In this document: one piece after another, positions 14,887 to 37,107 of the stretch | How the letters are laid out: each line of letters opens with the position of its first letter | Position numbering within the stretch: position 1 is the stretch's first letter | Source: an uncultured Spirochaetota bacterium | GTDB taxonomy: Bacteria > Spirochaetota > UBA4802 > UBA5550 | Assembly: GCA_963827275.1 (NCBI GenBank) | Contig: CAWHAA010000008.1 | Coordinates: 96,001 to 160,000 of the forward strand | Direction: 5' to 3' | Length of the DNA stretch: 64,000 bases | Notes under the pieces: generated by a model | What the model saw: only the letters and a program-made list of their open reading frames with translations | What the model was told of the DNA's origin: nothing | Databases searched by the model: none | Translations under genes and position numbers: made by a program

Positions 14887-15855
14887 TTACCGGTTTTCCC
14901 TGACGAGCATCTCGGCCTGTCGCTTCAGCTGGTCCGGAGGAAGGGGGATATACCCCGTTTCAGGAACGAAGCGCTGGCCCTCCCCGAGTATCCAGAGGAG
15001 AAAGCGGATGACCTCTTTTTCGCGGGGTATGCCGCGCGACACGAGGTGCAGGTTCCGCGCCGGCGGAGAGGGGAACCGGTTCTCAGAAATGGCCTTCATT
15101 AGTGAATCACGGTCCGCGTAAAAATTCTCGGCCGGATCGATCATCCCGTTCCCGTTGCTGTCGATAGGGAGGGGAATGATGCCCCGCACGGGGGCTTTTG
15201 TCGCCGCGTCAAAGGCATAGTTCACGTTGTTGTAGCCGATGCCAAAAATGTCGCTGCGCACCGCGTCGGTAATGCCGGGATCACCGTACACCCCGGTCCC
15301 CTTAAGGTCCTCCTGCGAGCCCCCCGCGTATTTCGCCCAGGTCCCGGCAGCCCCGCATGCATCGGAACGGGTATAGACGCGGATGGGGCAGGGCGTGTCG
15401 CTTTTCACGAAGCGGCCCCAGTCCCGGGCGCTGCCGGTGATCCATATCAGCGCGCATTCGTTCCTGGTGAGGCCGCGCTTCAGCAGCGCCTCTTTCTGGG
15501 GGTGGCGTTCATTTATGACCGGGACCACGGCGTCCCTGGCAATGCTGATCCACCAGGCGCCTCTGCCGATTTCTGTACTGGTAACGTCACGGGAAACCAT
15601 GCCGAGGTCGACGGCGCCGGTGAGCGCGTCGGTCAGCCCCTTTCCCGCGCCGCCCGCCGAGATGTCTATCTCGGTACCGGGGTTCTGCCTGCGGTATTCA
15701 GAGGCCCATTTCAGCGCCATCGGGTAGAGGGCCCATGCCCCGGAGATGGTGATTTTCCCGTCCATTGCGGAAGCGCCGTCATGGCCTTTCTTTCCGGAGC
15801 AGCCGGACATGAGGGCCAGAATGATAATGATGCCGATTGTTTTTTTTGTTCCCAT
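14887..15855 (-). CDS. pstS: Phosphate ABC transporter substrate-binding lipoprotein
   Basis: Lipobox MSGC; ISGAWALYP, SAGGAGKG, GMVSRD, YTRSDACGA, IGYNNV. Confidence 0.85.
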   Translation of the reverse strand: MGTKKTIGIIIILALMSGCSGKKGHDGASAMDGKITISGAWALYPMALKWASEYRRQNPGTEIDISAGGAGKGLTDALTGAVDLGMVSRDVTSTEIGRGAWWISIARDAVVPVINERHPQKEALLKRGLTRNECALIWITGSARDWGRFVKSDTPCPIRVYTRSDACGAAGTWAKYAGGSQEDLKGTGVYGDPGITDAVRSDIFGIGYNNVNYAFDAATKAPVRGIIPLPIDSNGNGMIDPAENFYADRDSLMKAISENRFPSPPARNLHLVSRGIPREKEVIRFLLWILGEGQRFVPETGYIPLPPDQLKRQAEMLVRENR

Positions 15856-16043
15856 GGTATCCCTACAGGTCACTAACATCAATGCCCTGTTGGAAATAAT
15901 CAAGCGATTTCTTAAATTCCTGTCAGGGCAGTGCAGGGGAATAATCAGAAGTGTGCCCCATATTATGTCGTATTTATGTGATAATTATATATTTTTTTGA
16001 AATTAATTAAGAAAATTATAACTAAATTTTATAAAATTATTGA

Positions 16044-16053
16044 TTGTATACAA
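16044..16053. promoter_or_regulatory. Palindromic operator TTGTATACAA (GntR-family-like) over a putative -35
   Basis: Perfect 10-bp palindrome, TATAAT at 16068; the same motif occurs at 25408. Confidence 0.45.
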
Positions 16054-16304
16054 CAAATAAAGTACCTTATAATCAGTTTAAAATTACTAATATAACCCAT
16101 TCGGGCGGGTTTTATTCGTTGACCGATTTTGTATAAAATATTATTATTAAAATTTTATAATAAGATTATCGTATGGTTACAGACGACAGTAATATTAGTT
16201 ACCTCCATAGTTTTATGACTCATATGGGCTCATTAACAGGAAAATTTTTCTTCCCGGATTGCCGGGCATCGGATATAAGATATAATCAGCGAGGGTCCAA
16301 CCGT

Positions 16305-19300
16305 ATGAATACGCCAGCCGCAGTAAAAAAAATCATGACCATTATCAGCGTGTTACTCCTGGGGGCAGGGTCCCTCGGTTGTAACGGGAAGGTTTTCAGC
16401 GCACTGCTTAATGATGATACTATTCCTTTTCTTGCAATGATCGCGCTGAACGGAGGCCCGAGTGTATCGTTAACCTCAACGCCGGTGATAAACATCGCGA
16501 ACGTTGGCGGATATTCGATTACCGGCGCCTGTTCCGAGGAGGGCCAGCCGGTAACGGTGGCGATCAGCGACGGCACGCTGACGGCAAGCGCGACGCCTCT
16601 CTGCACCTCCGGGACATTTACCGCAGATACGTGGTCTTCCCCGCTGAGCGGGCTTGCCGACAGCCCGACGATCCTGATCACCGCAGACCACGCGAGCGCC
16701 GAAGGAAGGGCCGCCCGGCAGGCCACTGCCACCGTGGTCAAGGACACGGCCGCCCCCGGGGTAACGATTTCCTCCACCGCGCCTCAGCCGACGAACCTGG
16801 CGATTCCGGTGACCATTACCTTTACCGAGAATGTAACCGGCTTTGAATCAACTGAAATAATCGTAGGCAACGGGACTGCCGGGAGCTTTACGGGAAGCGG
16901 GACAACCTATACGGCGATTATCACTCCTGCGGTCGATGGCCCGGTTACCGTTGATATCAATGCCGGGGTTGCGCAGGACGCGGCGGGGAACCCCAACACT
17001 GTCGCATCGCAGTTCACAAGGACCTATGATACGAGCAGTCTTCTCGTCTCTATTTCTTCAACCGCGTCTGACCCGACAAATGCGGTGATCCCGATCACGA
17101 TAACCTTCTCACGAAGCGTTACCGGATTTGAATCAACTGAAATAATCGTAGGCAACGGGACAGCCGGGAGCTTTGCGGGAAGCGGGACAACCTATACTGC
17201 AGTCATAACGCCTTCGGCCCAGGGAGAGGTGACGGTCGATATCAACGCGGCTGTAGCGGAGGATAGCCTGGGCTATCAGAACACCGCCGCTACCCAGTTC
17301 AGCATAACGTATGATTCGATACCGCCAACGGTAACCATCGGTTCGCCGAGCGACACGCTGATCAATTCGGCGCAGGAACACCATCTATCACCCTGACCTA
17401 TGACGTGGCGCCCACGGGCCTTGATTCAGGCGACATCCACGTGCCGGGGACCGGTGTACCTGCTCCGATGTCGATTGACGAACGCGACGACCGACACGCC
17501 CGATGTGCGGATATCCGGCTGCACGGGGAATGGATCGTTAACGATAACGGTCGACGCCGGCACGTCGCAGGACGCTGCGGGCAATTCTGACCTTGGCGAC
17601 AGCACGAGCGATTCCGTCACCGTGGACAACACACCGCCGACCATAACCTCGGTAGCGACAGCAAAGATAGACGGCACCTACACCATCGGGGAAGTCATCA
17701 ATATTGCGGTTGTATTCAGCGAGACGGTGACCCTGGCGGGCGCGGGCGGGACCCTTGATGTTGCCCTGAACAGCGGTGCGACCCTGAATGTGCCGACTTT
17801 CTCGGGAACATCCACTGACATAAATTACACGGTAGCGGCGGGCGAGTCCACGCCGGTATCGACAGCGCTGGACAGCTCCGGCATCAGCCTGGGCGGCGGC
17901 GCAACTCTCGTTGACGCGGCGGGGAACGCGATTTCAAGCTTCACCCCAGATTCGAACATCTCAGCGACACGGACCATTTACATCGACGCGGTCCTTCCCG
18001 CGATCACCTCCGCTGAGACGATGGACGCGGACACCGACGGCAAGATCGATCACTACAGGGTGACCTTCAACAGGAACATCAACGACAGCACCTTTGTCGC
18101 GGGCGAGTGGTCCGTGGCCGGCTATGCCATCACGGGCCTTGACACGAGTGCGGCCGCGCCGATATCGGACGCCGCGAACGACACTGTACTGTACATAGCG
18201 TTCTCCGAGCTTGGCGGCACCGTGGGCGATACGGGGGCGAAGCCTGATCTGACCACTCCCGGAACATTAACCCTTGCGGATTTCCGCGGAAACCCGATGG
18301 CGGCGGTGCCTGATACCGATGATGTGATTGAAACCGACAGGGCGGCGCCGGTCATCATGAAAGCAACCGGTCAAACCGGGGTCAACGGCCTGTCGATAGA
18401 GTTTTCCGAGCAGGTTGACGCGAACGGTGCCGCCGGCGCATGCCCGGGCGGGGATGGTAATGACCTGACCGCTGGAAGCTTCGTGTATATCGATGACAGC
18501 GGCGATGGGGCCGGCAGCATAAGCAGCATGGGCAGCGACGCAACCGCGTGCAGCACGTCCGGGAACTACGCCGTAAACGTGATACTGAACGTGAACATGG
18601 AAACCAGCGACCTTGATGTTGACCATCTGGCCCCTGCCCTGAACGCAGTCCGCGACATGGGCGACAACCCGGCTGACAGCGGGAGGCAGGTCGCGGTCAC
18701 CGGTGCGGTATCGCCGTACGTGTACGACGTGTACCCGAATTTAAGGACCAAGATACGGGTGGCCTTCTCAGAGCCGGTTGACAATACCGCGGCGACAAAC
18801 GCGACCAGCGCGCTCAACCATGCGAACTATTCGCTTGCCGAGAACCCGGTGGAGTCCGGGTGCTCAGCCGGCGGCGGCGGCGCGGACACGGTCGCTATCG
18901 ACACCGCGACCCCCATCGTGGACGTCAACGGCGACGGCACGGTGTTCGAGCTCACGACCACGGCAACCCAGTGCGGATCGACGACCTACGAGCTGACCGT
19001 GGACCAGGCGATTATAGACCAGAATGACCACGTGGGGCTGGTCCCCCCGTACATCATGACCTTCCTGGGCAACGAACAGCTCAGGGTGGTGAGCGGTTCG
19101 AACCTCAGCATCAACTCCATGGTCGTCGTGTTCAACAAGGCGGTGGAGGCCGGGACCGGGGACGGCGGCGCCGAGCTTGCGACGCGGTACCATTTCAATA
19201 ACACCACCATCGGCTCAGCTCCGACGAGCGCGGTGCGCGGGTCCGCCCCGAACGCGAACCGGGTCACCCTGGGGACGAGCTTCTTCCAGAAGGCCCGCAC

Positions 19301-23126: not shown

Positions 23127-24614
23127 ATGAAAAAATCCACCGTTTTTTTCCTGGCCCTGGGAGCGCTGGTTGTCGGCGCGGGAAGCGCCGCCCTGTTTTC
23201 TCAGGAGAACATCAATGATATCATGAACAACGCGGGCGTCAGGCTGGGTGAGCAAAACAGGCTGGACGAGGCGATAGAACAGTTCGACAAGGCGATCGAC
23301 TTCCGCGAAAAAGCTGCGGCGAAGGCATACCATAACAAGGGATACGCGCTGGAAAAGAAAGGCGATCTGAAAGAAGCGATCAAATATTACGAAGCGGCGT
23401 GGAAGTGGAACCCGAAGCAGGTGCCGACCGGCGAGCGCCTGGGGTACGGCCAGTATAAAACAGAAAATTTCGACCGCGCCATCGAGGTCGGCGAAGCGGT
23501 CATGCGGCTCGACCCCCGCAACACCCAGGTCCCCGTATGGCTTGCCGATGCGTACCGGAGGCGCGGGGACAAGAAAAAGGGCGCAGACACGGCGGCGCCG
23601 GCAGCTGAAAAGCCGCGCGTGTTTTACCTGTCCATCGACGCCATGGCGCGGATGGGGCTCTACTACGGCGCAAAGTCGCACTACGGGGGCCTCTATCACA
23701 CGAATCTGCACGGGTTCAGGTATGTGCCCGATCCGGGGCTCGTCACCAGCATTCCCTATACCATTTTCATAAGCATCACCCCGGTCCCGCTCATCCAGAT
23801 CGACCTGACAGTGGAGAACCCCTGGCTGGGCGGCGTTACGCCGCCGGGGCTGGTAGTGCAGACTGAAAAAGCGGAGTTTCTCTTTAATATCAAGAATTTC
23901 ACGCTGGGCGCCGGTGCGATGGTGAACCACTATGACGACGGCGTGGCGTTTTATAAACGATACAGGCTCACCGACGTCAAGGTCGGCTTCATCTTCGGGT
24001 ACCGCAAGGACGATATAGAGGCGAAAATAACCTGGTATCCCCGGATGCTTGTCATGGACCCGCGTTCATCAACGGGAAAGACCTTCGACGTGGGTTCGCT
24101 CCGCATCGATTATGCCTACCAGGCGTTTCCCGACATCAAGCTTTACGGGCTCTTCCATTTCCGCGATTATTACGTCTTCTGCCACTCCTTCGACTGGCGG
24201 GTATTCTACGCGAGCTACTACCGGTATTCCGAGAACATCGCCAGCTACTGGGGCGTCTATGACATGGGGCTCGGGCTGACCTTCAATAACCTCGCGCGGC
24301 ACGCCGACGGGACCGAGCTGTTTTCACTGAGCGTCGAGTGGCTCGAGCGGTTTTACCTGCGCGACCTGAACAACGACGCCCCCTACACCCTGGCGCCGAA
24401 CGGCCAGGGATGGTTCGGGCTCAACCTCAAGAAGTTCACCAAGGGGAGGCCGTTCTCCGGGTTCTGGGCACTGTCGCAGGTGCTCAGCCTCCGGCTCGAC
24501 GAGCAGCTCACCAGGAATTTTTTCATGTACCAGAAGATCATCGCGGAGCTGGCGGACCAGGACTCGGAGCACCACGAGTTCAATCTCCAGATCGGCATGG
24601 GATTCAAGATCTGA
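23127..24614 (+). CDS. Secreted TPR protein with a probable C-terminal outer-membrane beta-barrel
   Basis: Signal peptide, three TPRs, aromatic amphipathic strands, ends FNLQIGMGFKI. Confidence 0.65.
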   Translation: MKKSTVFFLALGALVVGAGSAALFSQENINDIMNNAGVRLGEQNRLDEAIEQFDKAIDFREKAAAKAYHNKGYALEKKGDLKEAIKYYEAAWKWNPKQVPTGERLGYGQYKTENFDRAIEVGEAVMRLDPRNTQVPVWLADAYRRRGDKKKGADTAAPAAEKPRVFYLSIDAMARMGLYYGAKSHYGGLYHTNLHGFRYVPDPGLVTSIPYTIFISITPVPLIQIDLTVENPWLGGVTPPGLVVQTEKAEFLFNIKNFTLGAGAMVNHYDDGVAFYKRYRLTDVKVGFIFGYRKDDIEAKITWYPRMLVMDPRSSTGKTFDVGSLRIDYAYQAFPDIKLYGLFHFRDYYVFCHSFDWRVFYASYYRYSENIASYWGVYDMGLGLTFNNLARHADGTELFSLSVEWLERFYLRDLNNDAPYTLAPNGQGWFGLNLKKFTKGRPFSGFWALSQVLSLRLDEQLTRNFFMYQKIIAELADQDSEHHEFNLQIGMGFKI

Positions 24615-24617
24615 GCC

Positions 24618-25403
24618 ATGCCTGACAGGATCGCCGTTTTCGCACGGGAGATATCGGTGGAGGCGGGTGAGATCCTCCTGCGGGGATTCAGGTCTGACCG
24701 CACCGTTGTTTCCTACAAGAGCAGGACCGACCTTGTCACCGATAGCGACAGGGCGTCCGAGGCCCACCTTGTCGCCAGGATCGCGGAACACTTTCCCGAC
24801 CACGCCATCATCGCCGAGGAGGGGAGCCGGAAGGACGCAGCAGGCGGGTATGTCTGGTTCGTGGACCCTCTCGACGGCACGAATAATTTTGCGCACGGGC
24901 TCCCTTTTTTTTGTGTTTCCATCGGCGTATTTTCAACAGAGATGCAGAAGGTCGTCGCCGGCGTGGTATACAATCCGTTCCTGGGCGAGATGTTCACCGC
25001 GGTCAGGGGCGGCGGCGCGTTCCTGAACGGGGCGCCGATTCATGTCTCGTCGATCGGCGATATCGGCATATCGCTGGTCGCGACCGGCTTTCCCTACGAC
25101 AAGGCCGTGTCGGAAAACAACAACCTGAAGGAATTCAACCGCATCATTCTGCGTATCCAGGGAATACGGCGTATGGGGTCCGCGGCCATTGACCTCTCCT
25201 ACGTTGCGTGCGGCAGGCTCGACGGCTACTGGGAAGGGAAGCTCAATCCCTGGGACATGGCAGCCGGGAGCCTTATCGTGGAGGAAGCGGGCGGGCGCGT
25301 GACCCGTTATGACGGCGGACAGTTCCACCCTGAGTTCCCTGAAGTCGTTGCCTCAAATGGCAAAATCCATCACCAGCTGATTGAGCTATTGTCATCAAAG
25401 TAG
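24618..25403 (+). CDS. suhB: Inositol monophosphatase family protein
   Basis: DLVTDSD, AEE, WFVDPLDGTNNF, RRMGSAA, WDMAAG. Confidence 0.93.
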   Translation: MPDRIAVFAREISVEAGEILLRGFRSDRTVVSYKSRTDLVTDSDRASEAHLVARIAEHFPDHAIIAEEGSRKDAAGGYVWFVDPLDGTNNFAHGLPFFCVSIGVFSTEMQKVVAGVVYNPFLGEMFTAVRGGGAFLNGAPIHVSSIGDIGISLVATGFPYDKAVSENNNLKEFNRIILRIQGIRRMGSAAIDLSYVACGRLDGYWEGKLNPWDMAAGSLIVEEAGGRVTRYDGGQFHPEFPEVVASNGKIHHQLIELLSSK

Positions 25404-25404
25404 T

Positions 25405-25420
25405 TTATTGTATACAATAA
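25405..25420. promoter_or_regulatory. 16-bp perfect palindrome (putative operator) upstream of the PilZ-LuxD operon
   Basis: TTATTGTATACAATAA, with TATCAT at 25430. Confidence 0.5.
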
Positions 25421-25611
25421 CCCTTCCTGTATCATTATTTTAAAATTGTCTCCATTTTTGAATTTCTGGAACCGAACATTAAATATATATCTTCGATTGA
25501 GCAAGACCTTCCGGCCAATCATTGCTGAATGCCGATGAAGGTGCGGGGATCACAGGCAGTGAAGAGATACATGTATCTGACCTGTAAAAAAGGTCCGGGC
25601 CACGGTGACAG

Positions 25612-28600
25612 ATGAGCAACAAGAGGAAGCATATCCGGGTTGCGTACAATAAAAAGGTCAGGCTTTTCTCGGACGAGCATACCTTTGAAGCACAATCCAT
25701 CAATATCAGCAACAGCGGGATCCAGGTCCGTACCAGCATACTCTCGCACGAGGTGGATGTAGAGCGTATTTCATTGACCCTCCCATCTAATGATGACGCC
25801 ATCCATATCCCCTGCAGAATTGTCAGGAGCCACACCGGCCTTCCGGGAGAGGATGGACACGTGCTCGGACTTGAATTTTCCTATCAGACCGAGGCCGAAA
25901 TGGCACTCGTCGGCAATTTCATCAAGGAGATGAAAAGCTCCCAGCTCGCTGACGACCGCAGTGCTGCCGAGATGAGGATCATCCCGCGCACATCATGCCA
26001 AATTGAGAATGTCGCCTGCAGCAAGCCCGGCGTGGCAATATGTTCTATCGACAATATATCCACGGACGGGTGCCTTGTCAGTTATGAGGGCGAACTCCAC
26101 ACCCATGAACCGATTGAGATTGAATTTTCCCTTCCGGGAGATTCTCAGGTGATTGCCATCCGCTGCAGCGTCGCGTATGCAATGAACAATTATTTTAACA
26201 ATGTCAGCAGGGCCGGCATGTGCTTCGGCGCTATTCGGGACCTCGACAGGATCAAGATATATAATTTCATAGTAAAATCAGCCTCCTCGTCATCTGTCAA
26301 GATTGTCCAGGAACGCAGATATGAAAACATCATCGGGCTTGAGTACCGGATATGCGAGCCGAAGCGTATTGAAGCGCTCTTCGGCCGAATAAAAAAAGAG
26401 AAAAAAAGCATCAATGTTCTTTTTGAAAACAATGCAGGCATGTTCGATGTTGTGCCGACTGATTTTTTTCCGGGCGACCGGTTTGTCACCACGAGACTTA
26501 ACGTCGATAACCGCACATTACACCTGAAACGGTTTCATACCGTGTACTGCTCGGTTATCATCCACGGGGACAGCTATTATTTCAACAGTGAGCTCCTTGA
26601 GCGAGGTGATGAGCAGATGGTGCTCTCCTTCCCTGACACAGTGTATCATTCGGAGAAACGGTCGCATGACAGGAAACCGCTCGGCGGCATGGTCGATTTC
26701 GTCATGATGACGGGCGGCTCGTCGTCTGCCCGGCTCCCCGGCAGGCTTGTCAACATCAGCAGGCGCGGGTTTCTATGCGACTTTCCCCCCGGGAACCTGG
26801 AGCGCGACCTCCTTAAAACCGGACAGGAGGTGTCGTATTTTTTCGGCAAGGACATGGGACTGGCCAATTTTGGCGAGATACGCCACTTGAAAGAAGTGGT
26901 CGGCGATGACGGGCAGATCAGCCTGCAGGTGGGGATCGAGGCGGGGATCAGACGCTCGGAGTTCCAGTTTAAAAAAATATCCTGTTCGCAGTGGAAGAAG
27001 CAAAAGCAGAAACATCCGAAGCGGCCCACGCGTGTACGGGACAGCATGATGCCGGACATCGTCCGGTATGAAAACAGGAGCGGAAGGGAGCTCGTCGCCC
27101 TCCTCAATTATACGAGACTGGGAATAGAATCTCCCGTTGTAATCCTGCCGCCCGCGTTCGGGAAAAAGAAGGAGACGCTGTCGCCGCTGGTGGTGACGCT
27201 ATTTGAAAATTTCATGCACGCGGCCAAAGATGTTATAACCATCCGGTACGATGGCATCAACAGGCCCGGCGAAAGTTATAATGAAGACATGTGCCCGAAG
27301 CGCGGATATGAAATGCTCCATTACCGCATCAGCCAGGGAAGGGACGACCTCGAGGCGACCCTCGATTTCGTGTGCAACAATGACCTCTTCAGGCCTTCAG
27401 CGGTCATCGTGGTCGCGTTCAGCATGTCGGCGATGGACGCGAGAAAGCTGATCATGGAGGACGGAAGGGTGGACTACCTCGTCAGCGTCATGGGAGCGAC
27501 CTGCGCGCGAAGCGCGTTCCGGAACATCACCGGCGGCATTGATATTATCGGGAACTCGCGCATAGGGATTGAAAACGGGGTCTCGGGCGTTCTCGGCCAG
27601 ATCCTGAACCTTGACACGACCGCGCGCGACCTGATCGATAATAAGTATGCCTACATAGCTGACGCACGATATGACATGACGAAGATCGGGATCCCGGTAT
27701 CCTGGATATACGGCAAATTTGACCGGTGGGTCTCCGAGGCAGAAGTCAGGGACATCATGAGCGTCAGGTCCAGCGGCAGGCGCGAGGTAATAGAGATACC
27801 GACAGGCCACAATCTCCGCTCCAGCGAGGACGCGATAAAGGCATTCAAGATCATCGCCGCGCTGATTTTCCGGCAGCTCTACGGGAAGACCATCCGTCCC
27901 TTCGACCCTGACCGGGACGCCATGATTGACCTGATCACCTACGAGCGGGAGCGGCATGCGGCAGACGATGGCATCGACATGCAGGGCTACTGGAAAAATT
28001 ATCTTCTCGGGGAGAAAAAGAACGGCGCCGGCTATGACTTCTATCGAAACCTTGACGAATTCAGGGAGTTCCTGTCTTTTCAGGGGTCCCTCGTTGACCT
28101 GAGGGACGGGGAGCTCATGGCGGACATGGGCTGCGGTACCGGCATCTTTTTTGAGAGGATGATCGCGGACAGGGCGGCCCGGGGCATTGACCTGTCAAAC
28201 GCGCAGGTAGATCTTGTGGACCTTGTACCGGAGGCGCTCGCCCGCGCCAGGGAGAAGTTCGCGGTGCTGAAAAAGATCCACGGGAGCCGGTTGCCGGAGA
28301 GGGTGAATTATATCCAGATGAACCTGGAGCCGAACCGCCTGCTCCCGGTGAAGAGGTTAATTGAGGACAGGGCGCTTGATGTCACGTTCCTGAAAAACCG
28401 CGTGGAAGGATTAAAAAACACGGTCGTGGAACGCCTGGCAGGCCTCGGATACGGCCGGCTCGGCGATATTCTGCGCGGCGGGGCCATAACAGATGACGAC
28501 GACGTATATTTTAACGAGCACGTGAACGGCGAGGAACGCCGGGTCATTTATGATTTGAACCGGGCCGCGCGGTTGTTAACGGGGAATCTCGGGCCATCCG

Positions 28601-29157
28601 ATTTTAAAAAAGGGAAGATGGTGCGGGACAATGTCCGGGAAAACGGCCGACGGGAGCTGCGCGCGGCTGATATCGATTTCAAGGAACTTGTTTTCGGCGA
28701 CCGGGGGCTTGACCTTTCCCTGGATTTCAGGGAAAAGAGGTATGATAAAATAGCGGCGAGCCTGCTCATCAGCTATCTTTTTAATCCCGATGAAATTATT
28801 TTTGATTTTTTCCGCATATTGAAGCCGGGCGGGCTGCTGCTTGTTTCATCGATGAAGCCGGACAGCGACATCTCCGTAATATTTACGAATTATATAAATA
28901 AAGCCAGTGAATTGGAGCGGGAAAAAACCGCGGACATCGGCCCTGAGACCGACCTCGTCAGCGCGCGGGCGATGCTGAATGAAGCGGCATCGCTCTTCCA
29001 GCTTGAAGAGGACGGGTTTTTCAGGTTTTATACCGGGGAGGACCTCGCCGGCATGATGAGGAGGGCGGGCTTTATTGATATAACAATCAATATGTCCATG
29101 GGTGATCCTCCCCAGGCGGTGATCGTTACCGGCACGAAGCCCGGCGGCACCGGATAA
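25612..29157 (+). CDS. Multidomain protein: 3x PilZ (with a YcgR-like linker), LuxD-like acyl-ACP thioesterase/acyltransferase, class I SAM methyltransferase
   Basis: PilZ motif pairs RKHIR/NISNSG, RIIPR/NISTDG, RSHDR/NISRRG. Hydrolase motifs PPAFGKKKE, IRYDG, AFSMSA, FDRWVSEAEV, TGHNL. Methyltransferase motifs DMGCGTG, VDLV, YDKIAASL, LKPGG. Confidence 0.75.
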   Translation: MSNKRKHIRVAYNKKVRLFSDEHTFEAQSINISNSGIQVRTSILSHEVDVERISLTLPSNDDAIHIPCRIVRSHTGLPGEDGHVLGLEFSYQTEAEMALVGNFIKEMKSSQLADDRSAAEMRIIPRTSCQIENVACSKPGVAICSIDNISTDGCLVSYEGELHTHEPIEIEFSLPGDSQVIAIRCSVAYAMNNYFNNVSRAGMCFGAIRDLDRIKIYNFIVKSASSSSVKIVQERRYENIIGLEYRICEPKRIEALFGRIKKEKKSINVLFENNAGMFDVVPTDFFPGDRFVTTRLNVDNRTLHLKRFHTVYCSVIIHGDSYYFNSELLERGDEQMVLSFPDTVYHSEKRSHDRKPLGGMVDFVMMTGGSSSARLPGRLVNISRRGFLCDFPPGNLERDLLKTGQEVSYFFGKDMGLANFGEIRHLKEVVGDDGQISLQVGIEAGIRRSEFQFKKISCSQWKKQKQKHPKRPTRVRDSMMPDIVRYENRSGRELVALLNYTRLGIESPVVILPPAFGKKKETLSPLVVTLFENFMHAAKDVITIRYDGINRPGESYNEDMCPKRGYEMLHYRISQGRDDLEATLDFVCNNDLFRPSAVIVVAFSMSAMDARKLIMEDGRVDYLVSVMGATCARSAFRNITGGIDIIGNSRIGIENGVSGVLGQILNLDTTARDLIDNKYAYIADARYDMTKIGIPVSWIYGKFDRWVSEAEVRDIMSVRSSGRREVIEIPTGHNLRSSEDAIKAFKIIAALIFRQLYGKTIRPFDPDRDAMIDLITYERERHAADDGIDMQGYWKNYLLGEKKNGAGYDFYRNLDEFREFLSFQGSLVDLRDGELMADMGCGTGIFFERMIADRAARGIDLSNAQVDLVDLVPEALARAREKFAVLKKIHGSRLPERVNYIQMNLEPNRLLPVKRLIEDRALDVTFLKNRVEGLKNTVVERLAGLGYGRLGDILRGGAITDDDDVYFNEHVNGEERRVIYDLNRAARLLTGNLGPSDFKKGKMVRDNVRENGRRELRAADIDFKELVFGDRGLDLSLDFREKRYDKIAASLLISYLFNPDEIIFDFFRILKPGGLLLVSSMKPDSDISVIFTNYINKASELEREKTADIGPETDLVSARAMLNEAASLFQLEEDGFFRFYTGEDLAGMMRRAGFIDITINMSMGDPPQAVIVTGTKPGGTG

Positions 29158-29192
29158 AACTATTCTGATCATGACAAAAAGAAAATCATGCT

Positions 29193-30578
29193 ATGAACAT
29201 CACAGATAAAATTTTTGAATCTTTGAGCGCGTGGGGTGAACACCCGGCGTTCATCGATCTTGTCCCCGGCCGGCCGCCGGCGTATATATCCGCATCGGAT
29301 TTCAGCGCGACCGTGCAGGACATAACCGGCGTTCTGAAAAAACACGGGATACGGAACGGCTTCATCGTGGCCCTTTTTTTGAACAACTCGATGGATTTTA
29401 TTTCAGTTTTTATCGCGCTGCTCGGCATCGGCGCAAAGCCGGTCCCGGTCAACATGGCGTTCCGGAAGGTCGAGCTTGACGAAATATTCGCCAATGCCGA
29501 CCCGCACGCGGTCATTACCGAGCACGATCACCTGCCTTTCATCCAGGCGTACCTGGAGGGGAAGATTGTCATTCAACGAAATCGGGGGAAACTGCTCCTG
29601 CACGACGCCGGCGCGGGACGCAGGGATCCGGCGGAGCTGGGTGATGACATCGCGTCGGTCAATTACACCTACCGCGGTTACGGGTACCCCCTGGGCGCGC
29701 TGGTGCCGCACGGCCAGTATCTCGCGGGGGCCGATTTCCTTGAAGCGGCGGTGCAGCTTGAGCGCGGCGAGCGGATAGTGGTGATACTGCCGATGCAGCA
29801 TATCTACACCCTGATCGGGTGCGTGTTCCTGCCCCTGCTGTACGGTGTAACACCGGTGATTTCATACACCAGGAACCCGCTGCGGCTTTTCGAAGCGGTC
29901 CGCGAACACGGTATTCACCATGTCCTGGCGGTGCCGGAGGTGTATGAGCTTTTTTTAAAGCTGCGCGAGGGGGCTGGCGATATCCCTCAGATGAAGGCCT
30001 TTCTTTCCGGCGGGAGCGTCCTGCCGCGTGAGAATTATACGCGGCTGATGGAGGAGTTCAACGTGGACCTGATCCACGGGTACGGCCTGACCGAATTCAC
30101 GCCGGTGAGCAGGAACATCAGGGGCGTCATTCGGCCCGGAACAATCGGTAAAGTCAGCGATGGAGTCGAGTGCAAAATTGACTCCCCGGATGCGAACGGC
30201 TCCGGTGAGATCATGATTAAGACCAAGGACATGGCACGGCACTACTATAAAAGACCTGCCGAGACCCGTGAGGCATTTGACGGCGGGTGGTTCAGGACGG
30301 GTGATATAGGGAAACTCGAGAACGGCCACCTGTTGTTTGAAAGGGAGAAAAAGGGGACCAGGAAAATCAAGGGCAACATGGTGGATCTCGAGGAGATTAA
30401 AAAGGCAATGGAATTGATGAAAGGTGTTCGTGAAGCACGGATTGCCGGTAGTAATAATATGCTTTCAGCTGAAATTGAATTTGATGGATCGGATCAAATT
30501 GACACAATAAAAATTAAACAATATTTAGAGAATATACTTTCTGTGAATAAAATTCCCCAGAACATTTCAATCATATGA
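29193..30578 (+). CDS. AMP-binding (acyl-CoA/acyl-ACP ligase-like) protein with a degenerate P-loop
   Basis: LPMQHIY, GYGLTE, WFRTGDIG and KIKG present; A3 loop reads YTYRGYGYPLG; ends before the A10 lysine. Confidence 0.8.
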   Translation: MNITDKIFESLSAWGEHPAFIDLVPGRPPAYISASDFSATVQDITGVLKKHGIRNGFIVALFLNNSMDFISVFIALLGIGAKPVPVNMAFRKVELDEIFANADPHAVITEHDHLPFIQAYLEGKIVIQRNRGKLLLHDAGAGRRDPAELGDDIASVNYTYRGYGYPLGALVPHGQYLAGADFLEAAVQLERGERIVVILPMQHIYTLIGCVFLPLLYGVTPVISYTRNPLRLFEAVREHGIHHVLAVPEVYELFLKLREGAGDIPQMKAFLSGGSVLPRENYTRLMEEFNVDLIHGYGLTEFTPVSRNIRGVIRPGTIGKVSDGVECKIDSPDANGSGEIMIKTKDMARHYYKRPAETREAFDGGWFRTGDIGKLENGHLLFEREKKGTRKIKGNMVDLEEIKKAMELMKGVREARIAGSNNMLSAEIEFDGSDQIDTIKIKQYLENILSVNKIPQNISII

Positions 30579-30608
30579 TTATAAATAAGGAAAATAGTAA
30601 ATAATATA

Positions 30609-30866
30609 ATGAAGACATTGGACCATGTAACTATTGTTAAAAAGATCATTTCGAAAATTACCAAATTTGATGAAGCTGATTTATCTAGCAATATTCTTCT
30701 CAGGGAAGAACTCGGTATTGATTCGATAATGGCCATGGAGATCATGGTAAATATTGAACGAACCCTTGAAATAAAAATCGAAGAAAAAAAATTACAAACT
30801 GTTAAAACAATTAAAAATTTAACAGATTTAATAAAGGAGGAAATGTCATTACAACGAAAAAGTTAA
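30609..30866 (+). CDS. Acyl carrier protein
   Basis: ELGIDSIMAMEI phosphopantetheine motif; 85 aa. Confidence 0.9.
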   Translation: MKTLDHVTIVKKIISKITKFDEADLSSNILLREELGIDSIMAMEIMVNIERTLEIKIEEKKLQTVKTIKNLTDLIKEEMSLQRKS

Positions 30867-32167
30867 AAATATGCCTGATTTCACCCAAGGGCCATTTATT
30901 AATACGCAATGAATTATTTTCTGAATTTGTTAAAAACTCGCGTGAAATGGCAACATATATGCACTATTGGTCGGGCCTCAGTGTCGCACTTGCAACTATC
31001 GCGGGATTGACTCCCCGGCAGCATGATGTGGTGATTATTGATGAAAACCAGGAAAAAATAAATTTTACCGACTATTATGATTATGACATAATAGGTATTA
31101 CTTCTATGACTCAGACGTCCCTTCGTGCATATGAAATTGCCGATGAATTCAGGGGGAAAGGTCTCTTCGTTGTAATTGGCGGTATTCATGCAACTGTCTT
31201 ACCGGAAGAAGTAAAGAGCCACGCTGATGCGGTTTTTATCGGAGAAGCTGAAAATACATGGCCACAGTTCATAAATGATTTTATCGGAGGTTCTCCAAAA
31301 CAAATTTACAATCAGAAAAATTGTCCTCCCATACAAATGGAGACAATGCCGACACCAAGATTTGATCTGGTTGCCCGTTATAAATATCCCGTTGTGTGGA
31401 TGCAGACAACAAGGGGTTGCCCTCATGATTGTGAATTCTGTGCGGCATCTGTTATATATGGGCGCAATTATAAACATAAAAATATTGAACAGGTTGTTGC
31501 AGAAATAAAAGAAATTAAGAGACACTGGAAGTTTGCACAAATTGGATTTGCTGATGACAATATGTTTGTAAATAGGGAATTTTCGCGGAACCTGATATCA
31601 AATTTTACTAATTTAAATTTCAACTGGTTTGCCCAGACTGATATATCTATAGGCAATGATGAAAAATTTTTAGATTTATTAAAAGAAAACGGCTGCAAGT
31701 ATCTTTTTATTGGATTTGAAGGAACATCAAAAAACAGGCTTGAGAAATTGAATACTAATAATTGGAAGGCAAAAAAATTTGATGATTATAAAATATATAT
31801 TGATAAAATACAGCGAAAAGGTATAGGTATATTCGGTTCTTTTATCCTGGGTTTCGATGAAGATGATGAAAGTATTTTTAATGATACAATATCTTATATA
31901 AATGATAATAATTTATTAGGTGCTTCAATAACAATATTAACTCCATTCCCGGGAAGCCGTCTAAGAGACAGAATGCAGTCTGAAAATAGAATTATGCATG
32001 ATGACTGGAGTTATTATACGGCATGGAACGCGGTCATAAGGCATAAGAACATGAAACCTGAAACGCTTGAAGATGGATTAATGAAGGTCTATTCAGGTAT
32101 TTATAATGACAGGACATATCTTAAAAGAGCAAAATATTTCAAAACAATATTAGAGAGTAATCTTTAA
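30848..32167 (+). CDS. Cobalamin-binding-domain radical SAM enzyme
   Basis: KICLISP N-terminal strand, GGIHAT, GEAE, TTRGCPHDCEFC, FADDN, GFE, FILGFD, TPFPGS. Start inferred at ATT 30848 (ORF track uses ATG 30947). Confidence 0.88.
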   Translation: MTTKKLKICLISPKGHLLIRNELFSEFVKNSREMATYMHYWSGLSVALATIAGLTPRQHDVVIIDENQEKINFTDYYDYDIIGITSMTQTSLRAYEIADEFRGKGLFVVIGGIHATVLPEEVKSHADAVFIGEAENTWPQFINDFIGGSPKQIYNQKNCPPIQMETMPTPRFDLVARYKYPVVWMQTTRGCPHDCEFCAASVIYGRNYKHKNIEQVVAEIKEIKRHWKFAQIGFADDNMFVNREFSRNLISNFTNLNFNWFAQTDISIGNDEKFLDLLKENGCKYLFIGFEGTSKNRLEKLNTNNWKAKKFDDYKIYIDKIQRKGIGIFGSFILGFDEDDESIFNDTISYINDNNLLGASITILTPFPGSRLRDRMQSENRIMHDDWSYYTAWNAVIRHKNMKPETLEDGLMKVYSGIYNDRTYLKRAKYFKTILESNL

Positions 32168-32169
32168 CA

Positions 32170-34740
32170 ATGAATGCAGATCAAAGTTTATCCTTGTTTA
32201 AAGAATTTAATGAGGAAATGAGAGTAATATGCAATGACATGGTGAAACGAGCCATGATTATCGGCATGATTTTATTTCCTATTTTTGGAATCTTGGATTA
32301 CTTTGTTGTTAAAGAAAATCTATCAACTATTTTGCTGATAAGAGGGATTACGGTCGTTCTCTATTTGTTGATATATTTTTTATGCCATTTTGCATTTGGC
32401 AAACGATATGCATTAAATCTTGGAATGGCCGCTTTTTTAATTACCGGGATATCAATAACCATTATGATTCATATGACCGGCGGTTATGAAAGTACATACT
32501 ATGTTGGCTTGAATATAGTACTTTTCGCGATGTATATATTACTGCCGTTGGATATTAAGAGAGGCATTATTGCCGCAACTTTTTTGTATTTAATTTATAT
32601 CGTCCCAATTATTGTTAAAGGTAATATTGCCAATGTTCCTATCCTGATAAATAATAATTTTTTCTTGCTCGCTATTACTGTAATATCATTGGCTTCTCTT
32701 TATTATAATAATAAAATAAAGTACGATGAATTTTCGGCACGTCATAAGATTCAGAAGGCAAACGAAGACCTTGAAAAGCTCACCGACGAACTCGCCGAGA
32801 CCAACCAGAAGCTCCTTACCCATGACCGGCTGAAGACGGAATTCTTCACCAACGTCAGCCACGAGCTTCGCACGCCGCTCACCCTTATCCTTGCTCCCCT
32901 GAAGCCGCTGATCGAGGGGAATTCCGGTATCCTTCCCCCCGTGGTGAAGGAGACCCTGGTGGCCATGCAGAACAACGGCCACCGGCTCCTGAAGCAGATC
33001 AACAACCTCCTCGATTTTTCCAAGCTGGAAGCGGGGAAGCTGCGCCTTAATATCGAAAACATCGACCTCATAGGGTTCTGCAAGGACATCATCAGCGCCA
33101 TGCAGCACGCGGCCACCACCCGCGGCCTCAAGCTTTATTTCCAGTACCAGATGGGGGACCCGATCAAGGTGATGATTGATGCCGAGCAGTTTGAAAAAGT
33201 AATAATGAACCTTCTCCACAATGCCATAAAGTTCACGCCGCAGGGCGGGCGGATCACCCTCTTTCTCGACGAGCGCGATGATGACGTCGAGCTGGTTGTC
33301 CAGGACACGGGGGTGGGCATACCTGAAAACATGCTGGAAACGATCTTCGACCGCTTCGCCCAGGTCGACGGGTCATCGACGCGGAGCAACGAGGGGACGG
33401 GGCTGGGCCTTTCCCTCGCGAAAGAGATCGTGGAGCTGCACGGCGGCGAGATCCGGGCCGAAAGCGTGCAGGGGAAGGGCTCCCGCTTCATCGTGCGGGT
33501 TCAGAAGGGCGAACGCCATATCGGCGAAGATATCCGTGAACGGCGGAAATCGGAGCAGCCGGTGCAATACAAAAAGCGCGCGAGCGACGCCGAGGGCCTC
33601 AAGGTCAGCGACGTGGTGAGCAATTACCGCGACCTCCAGCTCATCGACCTGGAACAGAAGGCCGAGATTGCGACCAGGGAACTCCGGCAGGGGACGCATG
33701 AATACACCCTGCTGGTCATCGACGACAATCCCGACATACTGAAGCTGATGCATTTTCTCCTGAACGACGAGTTTGACCTGATTCTCGCCGGCTCCGGGAA
33801 GGAAGGGCTGAAAGCGTTGCGGGAAAAGAAGCCGGACCTGGTCATCTGCGACATGATGATGCCGGAGATGGACGGCAACAGCTTCTGCCGCGAGGTCAAG
33901 TCTGATCCTGACCACCGGCACATCCCGATCATAATGGTGACCGCGCGCGCCGGTTCGGAGATGCTGGTCGAGGGCATTAATTCCGGCGCCAATGATTACC
34001 TGGCCAAACCCTTCGATGTGGCGGAGCTCAAGGCCAGGGTGCGTTCCCTCCTCCGGACGCGGACGATGGAGGAGGCGCTCGCCCTTGCCAACCAGAACCT
34101 CAAGATCAGGACCGACGACCTGGTGGAGCGCCAGCGCCTGCTCCTTCATTCAACGGTGAAGTCGCTTGTCTCCACAATAGAGGCGAAGGACAATTACACC
34201 AAGGACCACTCCCTCAGGGTAAGCAAGTATTCCATCGCCATAGCGAAAAAAATGGGATATGCCGAGCACGAGCTCAATGACCTGGAGCTGGCGGCCCTCC
34301 TCCACGATGTCGGCAAGATAGCCGTGCCGGAGGACATCCTCCACTATAACGGCAAGCTGACCGAGGAGGAATTCGGCCATATAAAAAACCATCCCGCGAA
34401 CGGCGCGCAGATCATCAGGCCTATCACCGAGTTCAAGAGCGTCGCGTCGATCGTCATCGCTCACCATGAGCATTATAACGGCAAGGGGTACCCCTTCGCC
34501 CTGTACAAGGACGACATCCCCCTCGGCGCGCGCGTCATGGCGGTCGCCGACGCCTATGACGCCATGACGTCAGAGCGTCCCTACCGCGCCGCGCTCTCCC
34601 ACAATTACACCGTCAAGGAGATCGTCCGCTGCTCCGGCACCCAGTTCGATCCCGGGATCGTCGATGTGTTCCTGACTATCCAGGACAAGCTCGGCGAGAT
34701 ACGGAGCAATGACATACAGGGACATGACATGACCAATTGA
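32170..34740 (+). CDS. Hybrid sensor: membrane domain, HisKA, HATPase, REC, HD-GYP c-di-GMP phosphodiesterase
   Basis: About six TM helices with GGYESTYYVGL and NNNFFL; SHELRTPL; NAIKF, DTGVG, GTGLGL; DD..D..KP; LLHDVGK, HHEHYNGKGYP, ADAYDAMTSERPYR. Confidence 0.9.
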   Translation: MNADQSLSLFKEFNEEMRVICNDMVKRAMIIGMILFPIFGILDYFVVKENLSTILLIRGITVVLYLLIYFLCHFAFGKRYALNLGMAAFLITGISITIMIHMTGGYESTYYVGLNIVLFAMYILLPLDIKRGIIAATFLYLIYIVPIIVKGNIANVPILINNNFFLLAITVISLASLYYNNKIKYDEFSARHKIQKANEDLEKLTDELAETNQKLLTHDRLKTEFFTNVSHELRTPLTLILAPLKPLIEGNSGILPPVVKETLVAMQNNGHRLLKQINNLLDFSKLEAGKLRLNIENIDLIGFCKDIISAMQHAATTRGLKLYFQYQMGDPIKVMIDAEQFEKVIMNLLHNAIKFTPQGGRITLFLDERDDDVELVVQDTGVGIPENMLETIFDRFAQVDGSSTRSNEGTGLGLSLAKEIVELHGGEIRAESVQGKGSRFIVRVQKGERHIGEDIRERRKSEQPVQYKKRASDAEGLKVSDVVSNYRDLQLIDLEQKAEIATRELRQGTHEYTLLVIDDNPDILKLMHFLLNDEFDLILAGSGKEGLKALREKKPDLVICDMMMPEMDGNSFCREVKSDPDHRHIPIIMVTARAGSEMLVEGINSGANDYLAKPFDVAELKARVRSLLRTRTMEEALALANQNLKIRTDDLVERQRLLLHSTVKSLVSTIEAKDNYTKDHSLRVSKYSIAIAKKMGYAEHELNDLELAALLHDVGKIAVPEDILHYNGKLTEEEFGHIKNHPANGAQIIRPITEFKSVASIVIAHHEHYNGKGYPFALYKDDIPLGARVMAVADAYDAMTSERPYRAALSHNYTVKEIVRCSGTQFDPGIVDVFLTIQDKLGEIRSNDIQGHDMTN

Positions 34741-34797
34741 GCCGCGCCCGATAATTTTTAATTGATTTATTCCTTGCGCGGGCCATACTGTCCGGTT

Positions 34798-36111
34798 ATG
34801 AATGATACCCTCTCACCGCAGAAGGTCTATACGGTATCCGACCTGACCCGCACCATAAAACGGACCCTTGAAGGGAAGCCGGAGCTGAGCGCACTCTGGG
34901 TCAAGGGCGAAATTTTCAACCTCACCATGCATTCATCCGGACATATCTATTTCAGCCTGAGGGACGATGACGCCGTCATCTCCGCCGTGTTTTTCAGGTA
35001 CGCCAACAAAAATCTTGATTTCAAGCTGAAAGAGGGGATGAACGTACTGGCCCTCGGCAGCATCACTGTCTATGAGCGACGCGGGAGCTACCAGATCAAC
35101 GTGAGCATGCTCAGGCCGGAAGGGGTCGGTGATCTGCAGAAGCGCATCGAGCTGCTGAAGCAGAAGCTCCTGAAAGAGGGCGTCTTCGACCCGGCGCGCA
35201 GGCGGCCCCTCCCGTTTTTCCCGCGGCGGCTCGGGATCGCGACTTCGCCGACCGGCGCCGCGGTGCGGGACATCATCAAGGTGGCGCTCCGGCGCTATCC
35301 CAATATCGAGATCGTGATCGCGCCGGCGATCGTTCAGGGGCTTGACGCGCCCGTCTCAATCGTGCGCGCCATCGAGGAGCTGAACCGGCCCGAATACGGG
35401 ATCGATTGCATCATAGCGGGAAGGGGCGGCGGCTCCTTCGAGGACCTGATGCCGTTCAACGAGGAGATCGTTGTGCGCGCCTTTTACAATTCGCGGGTAC
35501 CGATCATCTCCGCGGTGGGGCACCAGGTTGACCACCCGCTCTGCGATGACGCGGCGGACCTTGCCGCGCCGACGCCTTCCGCCGCGGCGGAGCTCGCCGT
35601 GCCCCTGAAAAAGGACCTCGAGGGTGAAATCGAGTACCTTCATATACGGGCGACCAATGGCATGGCGTCCCTGCTGCGGGAAATAACCATGAGAATCGAC
35701 GCGGTGCGGGCGCGGCGCGTCTTCAGCGATCCTTTTGAAATCGTAAACATGAGAGAGCAGATGCTCGCAGACATGAACCACCAGATGCTGTCGTCCCTGA
35801 AAGAGCTGGTCGCGCGCAATACGAACAGGCTCCTGAGCATCCCCGATATCCGCATGATCATCAGGAATGCACTGGCACATAAAAAGAATTCCTATCTCAT
35901 GGCGCTCAAGGCGCTGGAACAGCTTTCCCCCCTGGGCGTGCTCAGACGGGGATACGCGATCGCCATGGGCGCGGACGAGGCAATTATCAGATCGGTCGCC
36001 GATACCGGAACGGGGGACCTCATCAGGGTCCTTCTTCCGGACGGCTCCCTCGCGTGCAGCGTGAATTCAATCCACCCCGGAGGAGATCATGGAAAAGAAA
36101 AAAACGGCTAA
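34798..36111 (+). CDS. xseA: Exodeoxyribonuclease VII large subunit
   Basis: WVKGEI, SGHIYF, TSPTGAA, RGGGSFEDL, AVGH, APTPSAAAE. Confidence 0.96.
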   Translation: MNDTLSPQKVYTVSDLTRTIKRTLEGKPELSALWVKGEIFNLTMHSSGHIYFSLRDDDAVISAVFFRYANKNLDFKLKEGMNVLALGSITVYERRGSYQINVSMLRPEGVGDLQKRIELLKQKLLKEGVFDPARRRPLPFFPRRLGIATSPTGAAVRDIIKVALRRYPNIEIVIAPAIVQGLDAPVSIVRAIEELNRPEYGIDCIIAGRGGGSFEDLMPFNEEIVVRAFYNSRVPIISAVGHQVDHPLCDDAADLAAPTPSAAAELAVPLKKDLEGEIEYLHIRATNGMASLLREITMRIDAVRARRVFSDPFEIVNMREQMLADMNHQMLSSLKELVARNTNRLLSIPDIRMIIRNALAHKKNSYLMALKALEQLSPLGVLRRGYAIAMGADEAIIRSVADTGTGDLIRVLLPDGSLACSVNSIHPGGDHGKEKNG

Positions 36112-36403
36112 GGGAGTTGCAGATAAAGCTGAGAAGCTTGATTTTGAGAAGGCGCTGAAAGAGCTTGAGGAAATCGCATCGGCGCTGGAAGAGGGTGACC
36201 TGGGCCTCGATGAGTCGATCCGCCTGTTCGAGAAAGGCACGCACCTTGCGAAATTCTGCCGTGAAAAGCTCGATGAGGCGGAGAAAAAGATAGAAATATT
36301 GCAGAAAGGGGAGGGCGCCAGGGTCTCGGCGAAAAAGGTTGAGGTGGACGGCGAATCGGGCGAGATCGCAAACGAGGACGACCTCCAGGGGTCGCTGCTG
36401 TAA
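36089..36403 (+). CDS. xseB: Exodeoxyribonuclease VII small subunit
   Basis: FEKALKELEEI..LE.G.L.LDESI.LFEKG..L...C...L..AE. Confidence 0.95.
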   Translation: MEKKKTAKGVADKAEKLDFEKALKELEEIASALEEGDLGLDESIRLFEKGTHLAKFCREKLDEAEKKIEILQKGEGARVSAKKVEVDGESGEIANEDDLQGSLL

Positions 36404-36567
36404 TTAATATACAGTTTTTCAGTGATTGTCGAAAAAACCGGGGAAAGAATGTTGTGTATTTAAGAATTTTAATATATTATTAATAAATTTATTGACATGA
36501 ATATTTACTTATAAAAAAAATTGTAGTATATTAAAAAACAAACGGTATTCCGTCAGCGAGGCATATC

Positions 36568-37107
36568 ATGGATATACAACAAACGTTAGATTCACTGAAA
36601 GGTGAAATGTCACAGATGCGCGATGAGCGCAAGAACAAGCTTTCGATGGTCGTATTCAGCGGTGATCTTGACAAGCTCTTGGCCGCGTTCATCATTGCGA
36701 CCGGTGCGGCCGCAATGGGGCTTGAAGTCGTGCAATTTTTCACCTTCTGGGCCACCCCGGCCCTCAGGGACCCCAAAAAGAAAGGGAAAGGAAAAGACCT
36801 GTTTGGAAAGATGTTCGGCTTCATGCTTCCCCGCGGCGCCGGCAAGGTCAAGCTCTCAAAGATGAATATGGGCGGAATGGGAACGGTGATGATGCAGTAC
36901 CTCATGAAAAGGAAAAAAGTGGCGTCATTGCCGGAGATGATCAACCTCGCCGCGGAAATGGGGGTTAAGCAATACATCTGCGATATGTCCATGGACCTGA
37001 TGGGCTTCAAGCAGGAAGAGATGATCGATTACCCAGGCAGGGAGTTCGTCGGTGTCGCCAAGTTCCTCGAAGAGGCCGGTGACAGCAAGATACAGCTTTT
37101 TATCTGA
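36568..37107 (+). CDS. DsrE/DsrF/DrsH-like (DsrE2-type) sulfurtransferase
   Basis: VVFSGDLDK, FFTFW, LSKMNMGGMG, ICDMSMDLMG. Confidence 0.85.
   Translation: MDIQQTLDSLKGEMSQMRDERKNKLSMVVFSGDLDKLLAAFIIATGAAAMGLEVVQFFTFWATPALRDPKKKGKGKDLFGKMFGFMLPRGAGKVKLSKMNMGGMGTVMMQYLMKRKKVASLPEMINLAAEMGVKQYICDMSMDLMGFKQEEMIDYPGREFVGVAKFLEEAGDSKIQLFI

Follow-up and report, generated by a model that had tools for sequence, protein, structure and literature searches.

In a stretch of 64,000 nucleotides from an uncultured Spirochaetota bacterium (contig CAWHAA010000008.1, positions 96,001 to 160,000; hereafter the window), five same-strand genes between an inositol monophosphatase gene and xseA encode a hydrolase-methyltransferase, an AMP-forming ligase, an acyl carrier protein (ACP), a B12-binding radical S-adenosylmethionine (SAM) enzyme and a membrane receptor kinase. 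Within this operon the block 30419-32725, which covers the end of the ligase gene, the ACP, the radical SAM enzyme and only the sensor domain of the receptor, is exchanged as a unit within the species, and it exists in at least three widely divergent forms among near-identical strains. Judged by their sequences, the ACP, the radical SAM enzyme and the sensor have one common history, different from that of the flanks. The block likely sets a private signal type, with a putative signal molecule of the fatty-acid type and a putative signalling role, and we regard it as probable that the operon is a so far undescribed quorum-sensing system, with an acyl signal whose type differs from strain to strain and with feedback through cyclic diguanylate (c-di-GMP). 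Such a system would agree with an earlier note on this DNA, which had proposed a signal/receptor pair with pherotypes.

Exchange among near-identical strains

The exchange was followed in the contigs of eight of the 24 listed public sequencing runs. Contig 27 of run X4 matches the window over 29155-30418, with 35 differences, and again over 32726-32799, with 2,500 other bases between the two matches where the window has 2,307. Departure from the window at 30418, in codon 409 of the ligase gene, recurs in seven of the eight runs (X1, X2, X3, X4, X5, X7 and X10), and the edge at 32726, in kinase codon 186 at the end of the last membrane helix, in five (X2, X3, X4, X7 and X10); neither edge was seen in run X8. 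Runs X1-X5 have, beside the junction of the second allele, fragments that match the window's own allele with 0-2 differences; these may stem from another species with that allele. Contig 13 of run X2 covers 30383-30760 with one difference, bridging the left junction from 35 letters to its left.

The encoded proteins divide at the same places. The kinase cores of the receptors P0271, P0512 and P0514, which form one group, and of P0511 are identical to the window's at 654-660 of 662 positions, whereas the sensors of the P0271 group and of P0511 share 52 of 185 and 66 of 184 residues with the window's, and 48 of 186 with each other; the three receptor alleles thus have sensors that are 26-36% identical despite cores that agree at 654-658 of 662 positions (about 99%). 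The ligases P0516 and P0391 match the window's at 308 of residues 1-310, and in their tails at 21 and 16 of 57 residues. That these ligases and receptors pair into strain alleles is an assumption drawn from equal-sized contigs of the same source, and loose contig ends in the runs, read by hand, encode the P0516 tail and the end of the P0271 sensor. The 1,181-residue hydrolase-methyltransferase is identical at 1158 and 1163 of 1181 positions in two other strains. The position of the left edge is not constant: near residues 314-330 both P0391 and P0516 depart from the window, and near 377-390 P0391 does so again, there matching P0392.

The kinase cores of the three strain alleles form one starred clade; grouping the three sensors together is rejected in an approximately unbiased (AU) test (p-AU 2e-44), and each of them pairs with the sensor of another species, at 78%, 80% and 59%. 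The block swap that the earlier note had proposed is therefore borne out by different alleles in near-identical strains and by the exchange of the block as a unit. A pattern scan of metagenomes returned seven loci, none near-identical to the window, four of which repeat known genomes of the genus.

A shared history of carrier, radical SAM enzyme and sensor

Between species, the window's genome (G000) differs from its closest relative (G009) far less in the flanks, where identity is 74-90%, than in the ligase tail (28%), the ACP (34%), the radical SAM enzyme (43%) and the sensor (40%). In the pair of G014 and G016 the contrast is reversed, the upstream gene (60%) and the kinase core (78%) being less alike than the radical SAM enzyme (82%) and the sensor (87%). 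Divergence is thus not uniform across the operon; uniform divergence was an outcome which the earlier note had named as evidence against itself. Its proposed alignment across relatives gives conserved flanks with a variable ACP, radical SAM enzyme and sensor, and the incongruence that it expected between the trees of sensor and kinase core is found, as the sensor rejects the flank tree and the flanks reject the cassette tree. In AU tests on ten genomes, whose candidate trees were derived from the same data as were tested, the flank tree is rejected by the radical SAM enzyme (p 3e-31), the sensor (3e-185) and the ACP (1e-5), all of which accept the cassette tree (0.52, 0.14 and 0.67); both flanks reject the cassette tree.

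Partial rank correlations across 27 complete loci, corrected for the hydrolase, the kinase core and the N-terminal part of the ligase, link radical SAM enzyme with sensor (0.55), ACP with sensor (0.43) and ACP with radical SAM enzyme (0.41), figures that are inflated, related genomes not being independent. The ligase tail behaves otherwise. It barely rejects the flank tree (p 0.047), and its partial correlations lie between -0.05 and 0.08, that with the sensor being -0.05; the window and c9171 share 78% of the sensor and 26% of the ligase tail, G010 and c21165 73% of the tail and 28% of the sensor. By this correlation and these discordant pairs the tail was rejected as a part of specificity. 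The earlier note had included the ligase C-terminus in the specificity module, which did not hold up: the tail is replaced in all three strain alleles, yet it is untied to the sensor, and it is most likely a passenger of the crossover.

Composition and edges of the block

The block is AT-rich, with 32.8% G+C at 30410-32750 against 55.4% at 28000-30409 and 57.7% at 32751-35000. A fit of two changepoints in G+C is best at 30395 and 32735, where the log-likelihood is about 172 higher than without any changepoint, and the G+C content of third codon positions (GC3) falls from 0.72 to 0.21 near codon 409 of the ligase gene and climbs from 0.33 to 0.81 near codon 202 of the kinase gene. Both measures confirm the abrupt drop inside the 3' end of the ligase gene and the return inside the kinase gene that the earlier note had described; its spot counts (18/60 G+C at 31621-31680 and 43/60 at 33361-33420) were exact on recount, and the reading frames of both genes are open across the edges, as it had said. 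The right edge, placed by that note at the junction of membrane domain and HisKA, does lie at the end of the last membrane helix, but the junction is one of helix and coiled coil and not HisKA itself, and it is about 45 residues N-terminal of the phospho-histidine H231.

Composition alone does not make the block special, since low G+C is common in the genome (20 blocks of at least 2 kb with 1-kb windows under 38% G+C in 4.13 Mb); it is the exchange that sets it apart. In nine of ten genomes the GC3 of the radical SAM gene is at least 0.10 lower than that of the upstream gene, whichever allele is present, and this AT-richness across alleles rules out low G+C as proof of one recent import. The 80-base stretches at the junctions have no repeat or insertion-sequence signature, the longest shared word being 8 letters in direct and 6 in inverted orientation. 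A promoter scan gave 29 matches against 12.6 in shuffled sequence and is not informative because the matches lie mostly within the AT-rich block; Rfam has no match in 24000-37000.

Further stretches of the window under 40% G+C lie at 10751-11250, 15751-16500, 58001-59000 and 60501-63750. A second low-G+C block in the same genome (L098:738-6825, which is G000:C5:684237-690324) extends over that third of a kinase-REC-SpoIIE gene which encodes the 7TMR-DISM sensor (GC3 0.33 against 0.78) and also holds an open reading frame of 78 amino acids, a B12-type radical SAM gene and a methyltransferase gene; it may be another swapped sensor-plus-enzyme cassette.

The operon and its proteins

Table 1. Features of the operon, in positions of the window.
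Feature	Position	Strand	Basis
Exchanged cassette, 2,307 bp: last 52 codons of the ligase, ACP, B12 radical SAM enzyme, six-helix sensor of the receptor	30419..32725	+	strain contig edges, G+C changepoints
Triple-PilZ / LuxD-like thioesterase / class I SAM methyltransferase protein, 1,181 amino acids, outside the exchange	25612..29157	+	Pfam, motifs, fold
AMP-forming ligase, 461 amino acids, with residues 409-461 in the exchange	29193..30578	+	PF00501 E 6e-47
Stand-alone acyl carrier protein, 85 amino acids, GIDS motif (S39), in the cassette	30609..30866	+	PF00550 E 1.9e-12
B12-binding radical SAM enzyme, CxxxCxxC intact, in the cassette	30848..32167	+	PF02310, PF04055
Six-helix membrane sensor (MASE8-like; adenylyl-cyclase membrane-anchor fold), in the cassette	32170..32725	+	predicted model
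Receptor core, outside the exchange: coiled coil, HisKA (H231), HATPase, REC, HD-GYP	32726..34740	+	Pfam, motifs

The first protein of the operon is predicted to be a release and finishing enzyme. Pfam assigns its PilZ and methyltransferase families; it has three RxxxR..[DN]xSxxG c-di-GMP motifs, all three of which are kept in 55 of 65 full-length relatives, and its methyltransferase domain, with generic relatives only, has an invariant DxGCGTG. The hydrolase domain finds the myristoyl-ACP thioesterase LuxD (1THT) as its best match both by profile (E 0.0046) and by the fold of its model (predicted local distance difference test score, pLDDT, 87.8; E 1e-12; Z 29.6, root-mean-square deviation 2.7, 274 residues aligned), and its S604, D704 and H733 are invariant in 72 sequences. 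Since it reaches 14 bits with the NCBIfam LuxD model, far under the cut-off of 420, it is LuxD-like and not LuxD. A tblastn search of plasmids with this protein gave no match.

Of the 90 NCBIfam families that the ligase matched, 25 were listed, and it falls short of the cut-off for every one of these. AMP-forming ligases usually have the loop YTSGTTGxPKG; here YTYRGxGYPLGA (window 29661-29696) replaces this phosphate loop and is nearly invariant in ten genomes. The ACP is 29-41% identical to those of nine relatives in the genus. The radical SAM enzyme is closest to NCBIfam models that include HpnJ, the ladderane B12 radical SAM enzyme and HpnR, all far under cut-off. Its first ATG is at 30947, and a homologous frame that matches the N-termini of relatives runs about 33 codons further upstream (window 30815-30946), overlapping the end of the ACP gene, with no ATG, GTG or TTG. 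A strong ribosome-binding site lies 7 bases 5' of an ATT at 30848, and contig 11 of run X5 spans 30819-31041 with no insertion or deletion, by which a frameshift error was rejected; translation may possibly start at a non-AUG codon or by a -1 shift.

The model of the sensor has a pLDDT of 95 and six membrane helices. Its structural matches are ImcA (Z 16.8), the adenylyl cyclase AC5 (16.2) and the membrane adenylyl cyclase 6R3Q (16.1), the next having 10.2; Foldseek ranks the same proteins at the top, but with E above 0.001, and no CqsS chain is among the listed matches of the two fold searches. MASE8 (PF20968; for the naming of MASE domains see 10.1101/2021.11.05.467447) is matched at E<=0.01 by 16 of 45 relatives, the best at 2.2e-5, with no match for the window's copy; the top Atlas cluster for the sensor is MASE8 (0.97), which is also precomputed on many relatives. 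The 49 sensors fall into 21 clusters, and no second member of the sensor family was found in the window's own genome. In the receptor core the HHEHYNGKGYP motif of HD-GYP is intact.

Distribution and variant layouts

Both the ligase and the hydrolase-methyltransferase are present in the same nine of the 16 other genomes of the genus, all with the gene order kept, and the ligase in none of 44 further genomes of the family and order; a sample of the window's phylum gave matches in 8 of 401 genomes, all within the genus. Five of the genomes that have no operon differ at its site. In G013 both flanking genes are about 300 bases apart, an unrelated HD-GYP gene sits at the operon site in G008 and G015 and after the first flank in G005, and the operon flanks are on different contigs in G005 and G006. 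Such unrelated HD-GYP genes at empty sites suggest that the site hosts alternative c-di-GMP modules. In L088, L089 and L092, from genomes of the genus that have no operon, an unrelated HD-GYP gene of about 345 codons directly follows the inositol monophosphatase gene.

An alignment-based scan reached further, to 61 loci with mostly Spirochaetota titles but also Desulfobacteraceae, Eubacteriales, Aminicenantes and Bacteroidota; a single-protein scan of genome contigs, unlike it, gave no loci, and a search of representative proteins, dominated by non-ribosomal peptide synthetases, gave no further context. Among cultured bacteria, Desulfotignum phosphitoxidans DSM 13687 is named as the source of a relative of the hydrolase-methyltransferase at 55% (P0188). 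With L080 (a 26% match) dropped and the window, L016 and L083-L085 added, the set holds 65 loci. Among the 52 with ACP and sensor in view, the radical SAM gene of the family stands between them in 34, before the ACP in two and inverted in one; two have a different one or a fragment, and 13 have none.

The individual layouts are diverse. The inverted cassette gene lies between ACP and sensor in L039 (9862-11190). A second, inverted radical SAM gene follows the receptor in L057, and inverted pieces of one lie upstream in L058. In L036 (9383-10971) and L051 (9178-10759) the order of radical SAM and ACP is reversed, and their sensors are mutually closest, at 53%, with all others at 38% or less. 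The Desulfobacula-titled L023 has a different B12 radical SAM protein of 560 amino acids in the cassette position (3232-4911), a sensor that shares 58-60% identity with one group of spirochaete alleles, and a receptor with two kinase modules and a separate REC-HD-GYP protein.

A candidate acyl-signal system and its alternatives

From what is known of the protein families we infer the chemistry of each step, and with it export, ligand binding and the sign of the feedback. The cycle would begin with the ligase, which is predicted to activate an acid and transfer it to the ACP. On this carrier the chain would be modified by the B12 radical SAM enzyme; class B radical SAM enzymes usually carry out C-methylation. 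The LuxD-like thioesterase and the fused methyltransferase would then release and methylate the chain; that the hydrolase has an acyl-ACP thioesterase fold is counted here as enzyme logic for an acyl signal. A lipophilic product could bind the six-helix sensor within the membrane, upon which the kinase-REC-HD-GYP core would alter c-di-GMP, which in turn would regulate the synthase by way of the three PilZ motifs. The exchange itself likely occurs by homologous recombination in the conserved sides, the RKxKGNMVDLEE region of the ligase and the EFSAR/coiled-coil region of the receptor, and would move tailoring enzyme, carrier and matching sensor together while chain supply and output stay put. 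As the strains have the same release enzyme and do not differ in the substrate-binding part of their ligase, differences between alleles would come from the radical SAM step.

Several points weigh against this reading. The N-terminal part of the ligase rejects both trees of the ten-genome AU tests and thus has a third history, and similar radical SAM enzymes occur with unlike sensors, as in G009 and G010 (61% and 30%), one of 11 such pairs. The 13 loci of 52 with no radical SAM gene between ligase and sensor make tailoring optional. The thioesterase-methyltransferase, being outside the exchange, has to cope with ACPs that have only about 30-40% in common. ImcA is reported, in the passages of PMC10904736 that concern it, to be under the control of a partner membrane protein, so the fold does not require a small-molecule ligand. 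For the second and third alleles the strain-level comparison covers ligases and receptors, and the signal molecule, its export route and the regulated trait are all putative.

It is rather unlikely that the operon instead makes a modified membrane lipid or anchor which is kept in the cell and monitored by the sensor as a private feedback loop, with alleles that differ by habitat and not by social group. The closest models of the radical SAM enzyme do include lipid enzymes, if far under cut-off, no exporter is among the operon genes, and the modelled sensor is wholly membrane-embedded; but different alleles of a species are found side by side in the same samples, and other species have them too, a thioesterase with a methyltransferase points to a released product, and a purely internal loop gives little cause for so many clusters of sensors. 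A product that is an antagonistic or interspecies compound, with the sensor as an immunity or early-warning part and diversity kept by competition and not by kin counting, is unlikely too. It would suit the accessory nature of the operon within the genus, its absence from the site in G013 and its occurrence in several phyla, and AT-rich exchangeable blocks are typical of conflict loci. An HD-GYP phosphodiesterase output together with c-di-GMP motifs on the synthase is, however, a closed autoregulatory design, and the operon has no transporter or resistance-type gene.

Linkage alone would also yield shared trees, and the ligase tail, carried without tracking the sensor, demonstrates that hitch-hiking occurs here; the genes might therefore travel together merely as neighbours between two conserved recombination anchors, with sensor and enzyme not functionally matched. 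We consider this improbable, for it leaves unexplained why such different sensors persist in one species, why the right edge never reaches into the kinase core and why ACP and sensor remain linked where the radical SAM gene is absent, inverted or moved. That the block is a chimeric assembly, the other outcome which the earlier note had named as fatal to its proposal, is hardly conceivable: among the contigs listed in the eight runs none bridges the right junction in the window's form or spans the whole block, but X2 contig 13 crosses the left junction, near-exact pieces of the window's allele occur in five runs, both hybrid genes are open and of full length, and nine relatives have the same layout with alleles of their own.

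With the quorum-sensing reading preferred, we incline, with some reserve, to place the operon in a new family of quorum-sensing systems that use no peptide and extend over anaerobic Spirochaetota, Desulfobacteraceae and other phyla. An acyl signal tailored by a radical SAM enzyme would there be exchanged in one cassette with its membrane sensor, giving many private languages across species borders, all of them wired to c-di-GMP. Cassettes of signal and sensor alleles are textbook knowledge for peptide systems; here the same design would be built around an acyl-carrier pathway in anaerobic Gram-negative bacteria. The natural alleles on 99% identical output cores are ready matched and mismatched pairs for finding the ligands of orphan six-helix sensors and for learning what each radical SAM enzyme adds; if the reading is true, MASE8-type sensors with the fold of adenylyl-cyclase anchors would thereby gain their first ligands. 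The organisms were found in samples from bioreactors, wastewater and sediment, settings in which c-di-GMP-controlled aggregation matters.

Comparison with known systems

No description of the operon was found in the literature searched, which lay outside subscription journals and supplements, and by the test of the synthase it is not a member of the agr, Rpf or Cqs systems. Its hydrolase domain has the alpha/beta fold and the Ser-Asp-His triad of LuxD, with the nucleophile and acid motifs aligned; it differs in having 13-16% identity and in being fused to PilZ and methyltransferase domains, with no lux genes. The Xanthomonas Rpf system for the diffusible signal factor (DSF) consists of RpfB, the crotonase-family synthase RpfF, RpfC and RpfG, with a relay from kinase through REC to HD-GYP. 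As there, an acyl ligase adjoins a membrane hybrid kinase that signals to REC-HD-GYP, and in L023 kinase and REC-HD-GYP are separate proteins like RpfC and RpfG; Pfam found no crotonase-type synthase among the operon genes, whose hydrolase is of the alpha/beta fold, and the private ACP, the radical SAM enzyme and the allele cassette set the operon apart.

CqsA and LqsA are synthases that depend on pyridoxal phosphate, and Pfam found none of that kind among the operon genes. A possible likeness lies in the receptors, CqsS and LqsS being described in part of PMC4821796 as of six-helix design with lipophilic acyl ligands; the sensor here has six helices and few loops, and the comparison is by a fold match to cyclase anchors and not by homology to CqsS. 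In Ralstonia, strains make different fatty-acid methyl esters, with the methyltransferase and sensor kinase of the Phc system in one operon, as an excerpt of PMC8578825 has it. A SAM methyltransferase and a membrane kinase share an operon here as well, a comparison by description and not by PhcB or PhcS sequence; no model named for PhcB or PhcS is among the NCBIfam matches, whether or not such models exist. The present operon differs in its dedicated ligase, ACP, radical SAM enzyme, thioesterase, PilZ control and HD-GYP output, and in that its methyltransferase lies outside the swapped block.

The closest parallel in genetic layout comes from peptide systems. Agr has a hypervariable region within agrB, agrD and agrC (sections of PMC10482373) and ComQXPA a polymorphic block of signal-making genes with part of the membrane receptor (sections of PMC4408185), and coexisting alleles are expected under minority-advantage selection, according to the relevant part of PMC6461992. 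Among the five operon genes and three neighbours Pfam found no AgrD/AgrB, ComX/ComQ or DNA-binding regulator. The agr comparison of the earlier note therefore stands as an analogy of layout, and membership in agr does not, no peptide precursor or processing enzyme having been found: as in agr and ComQXPA, a hypervariable block extends over putative signal genes and receptor sensor, with several alleles inside one species, but what varies here is an ACP and a B12 radical SAM enzyme, and the output is HD-GYP.

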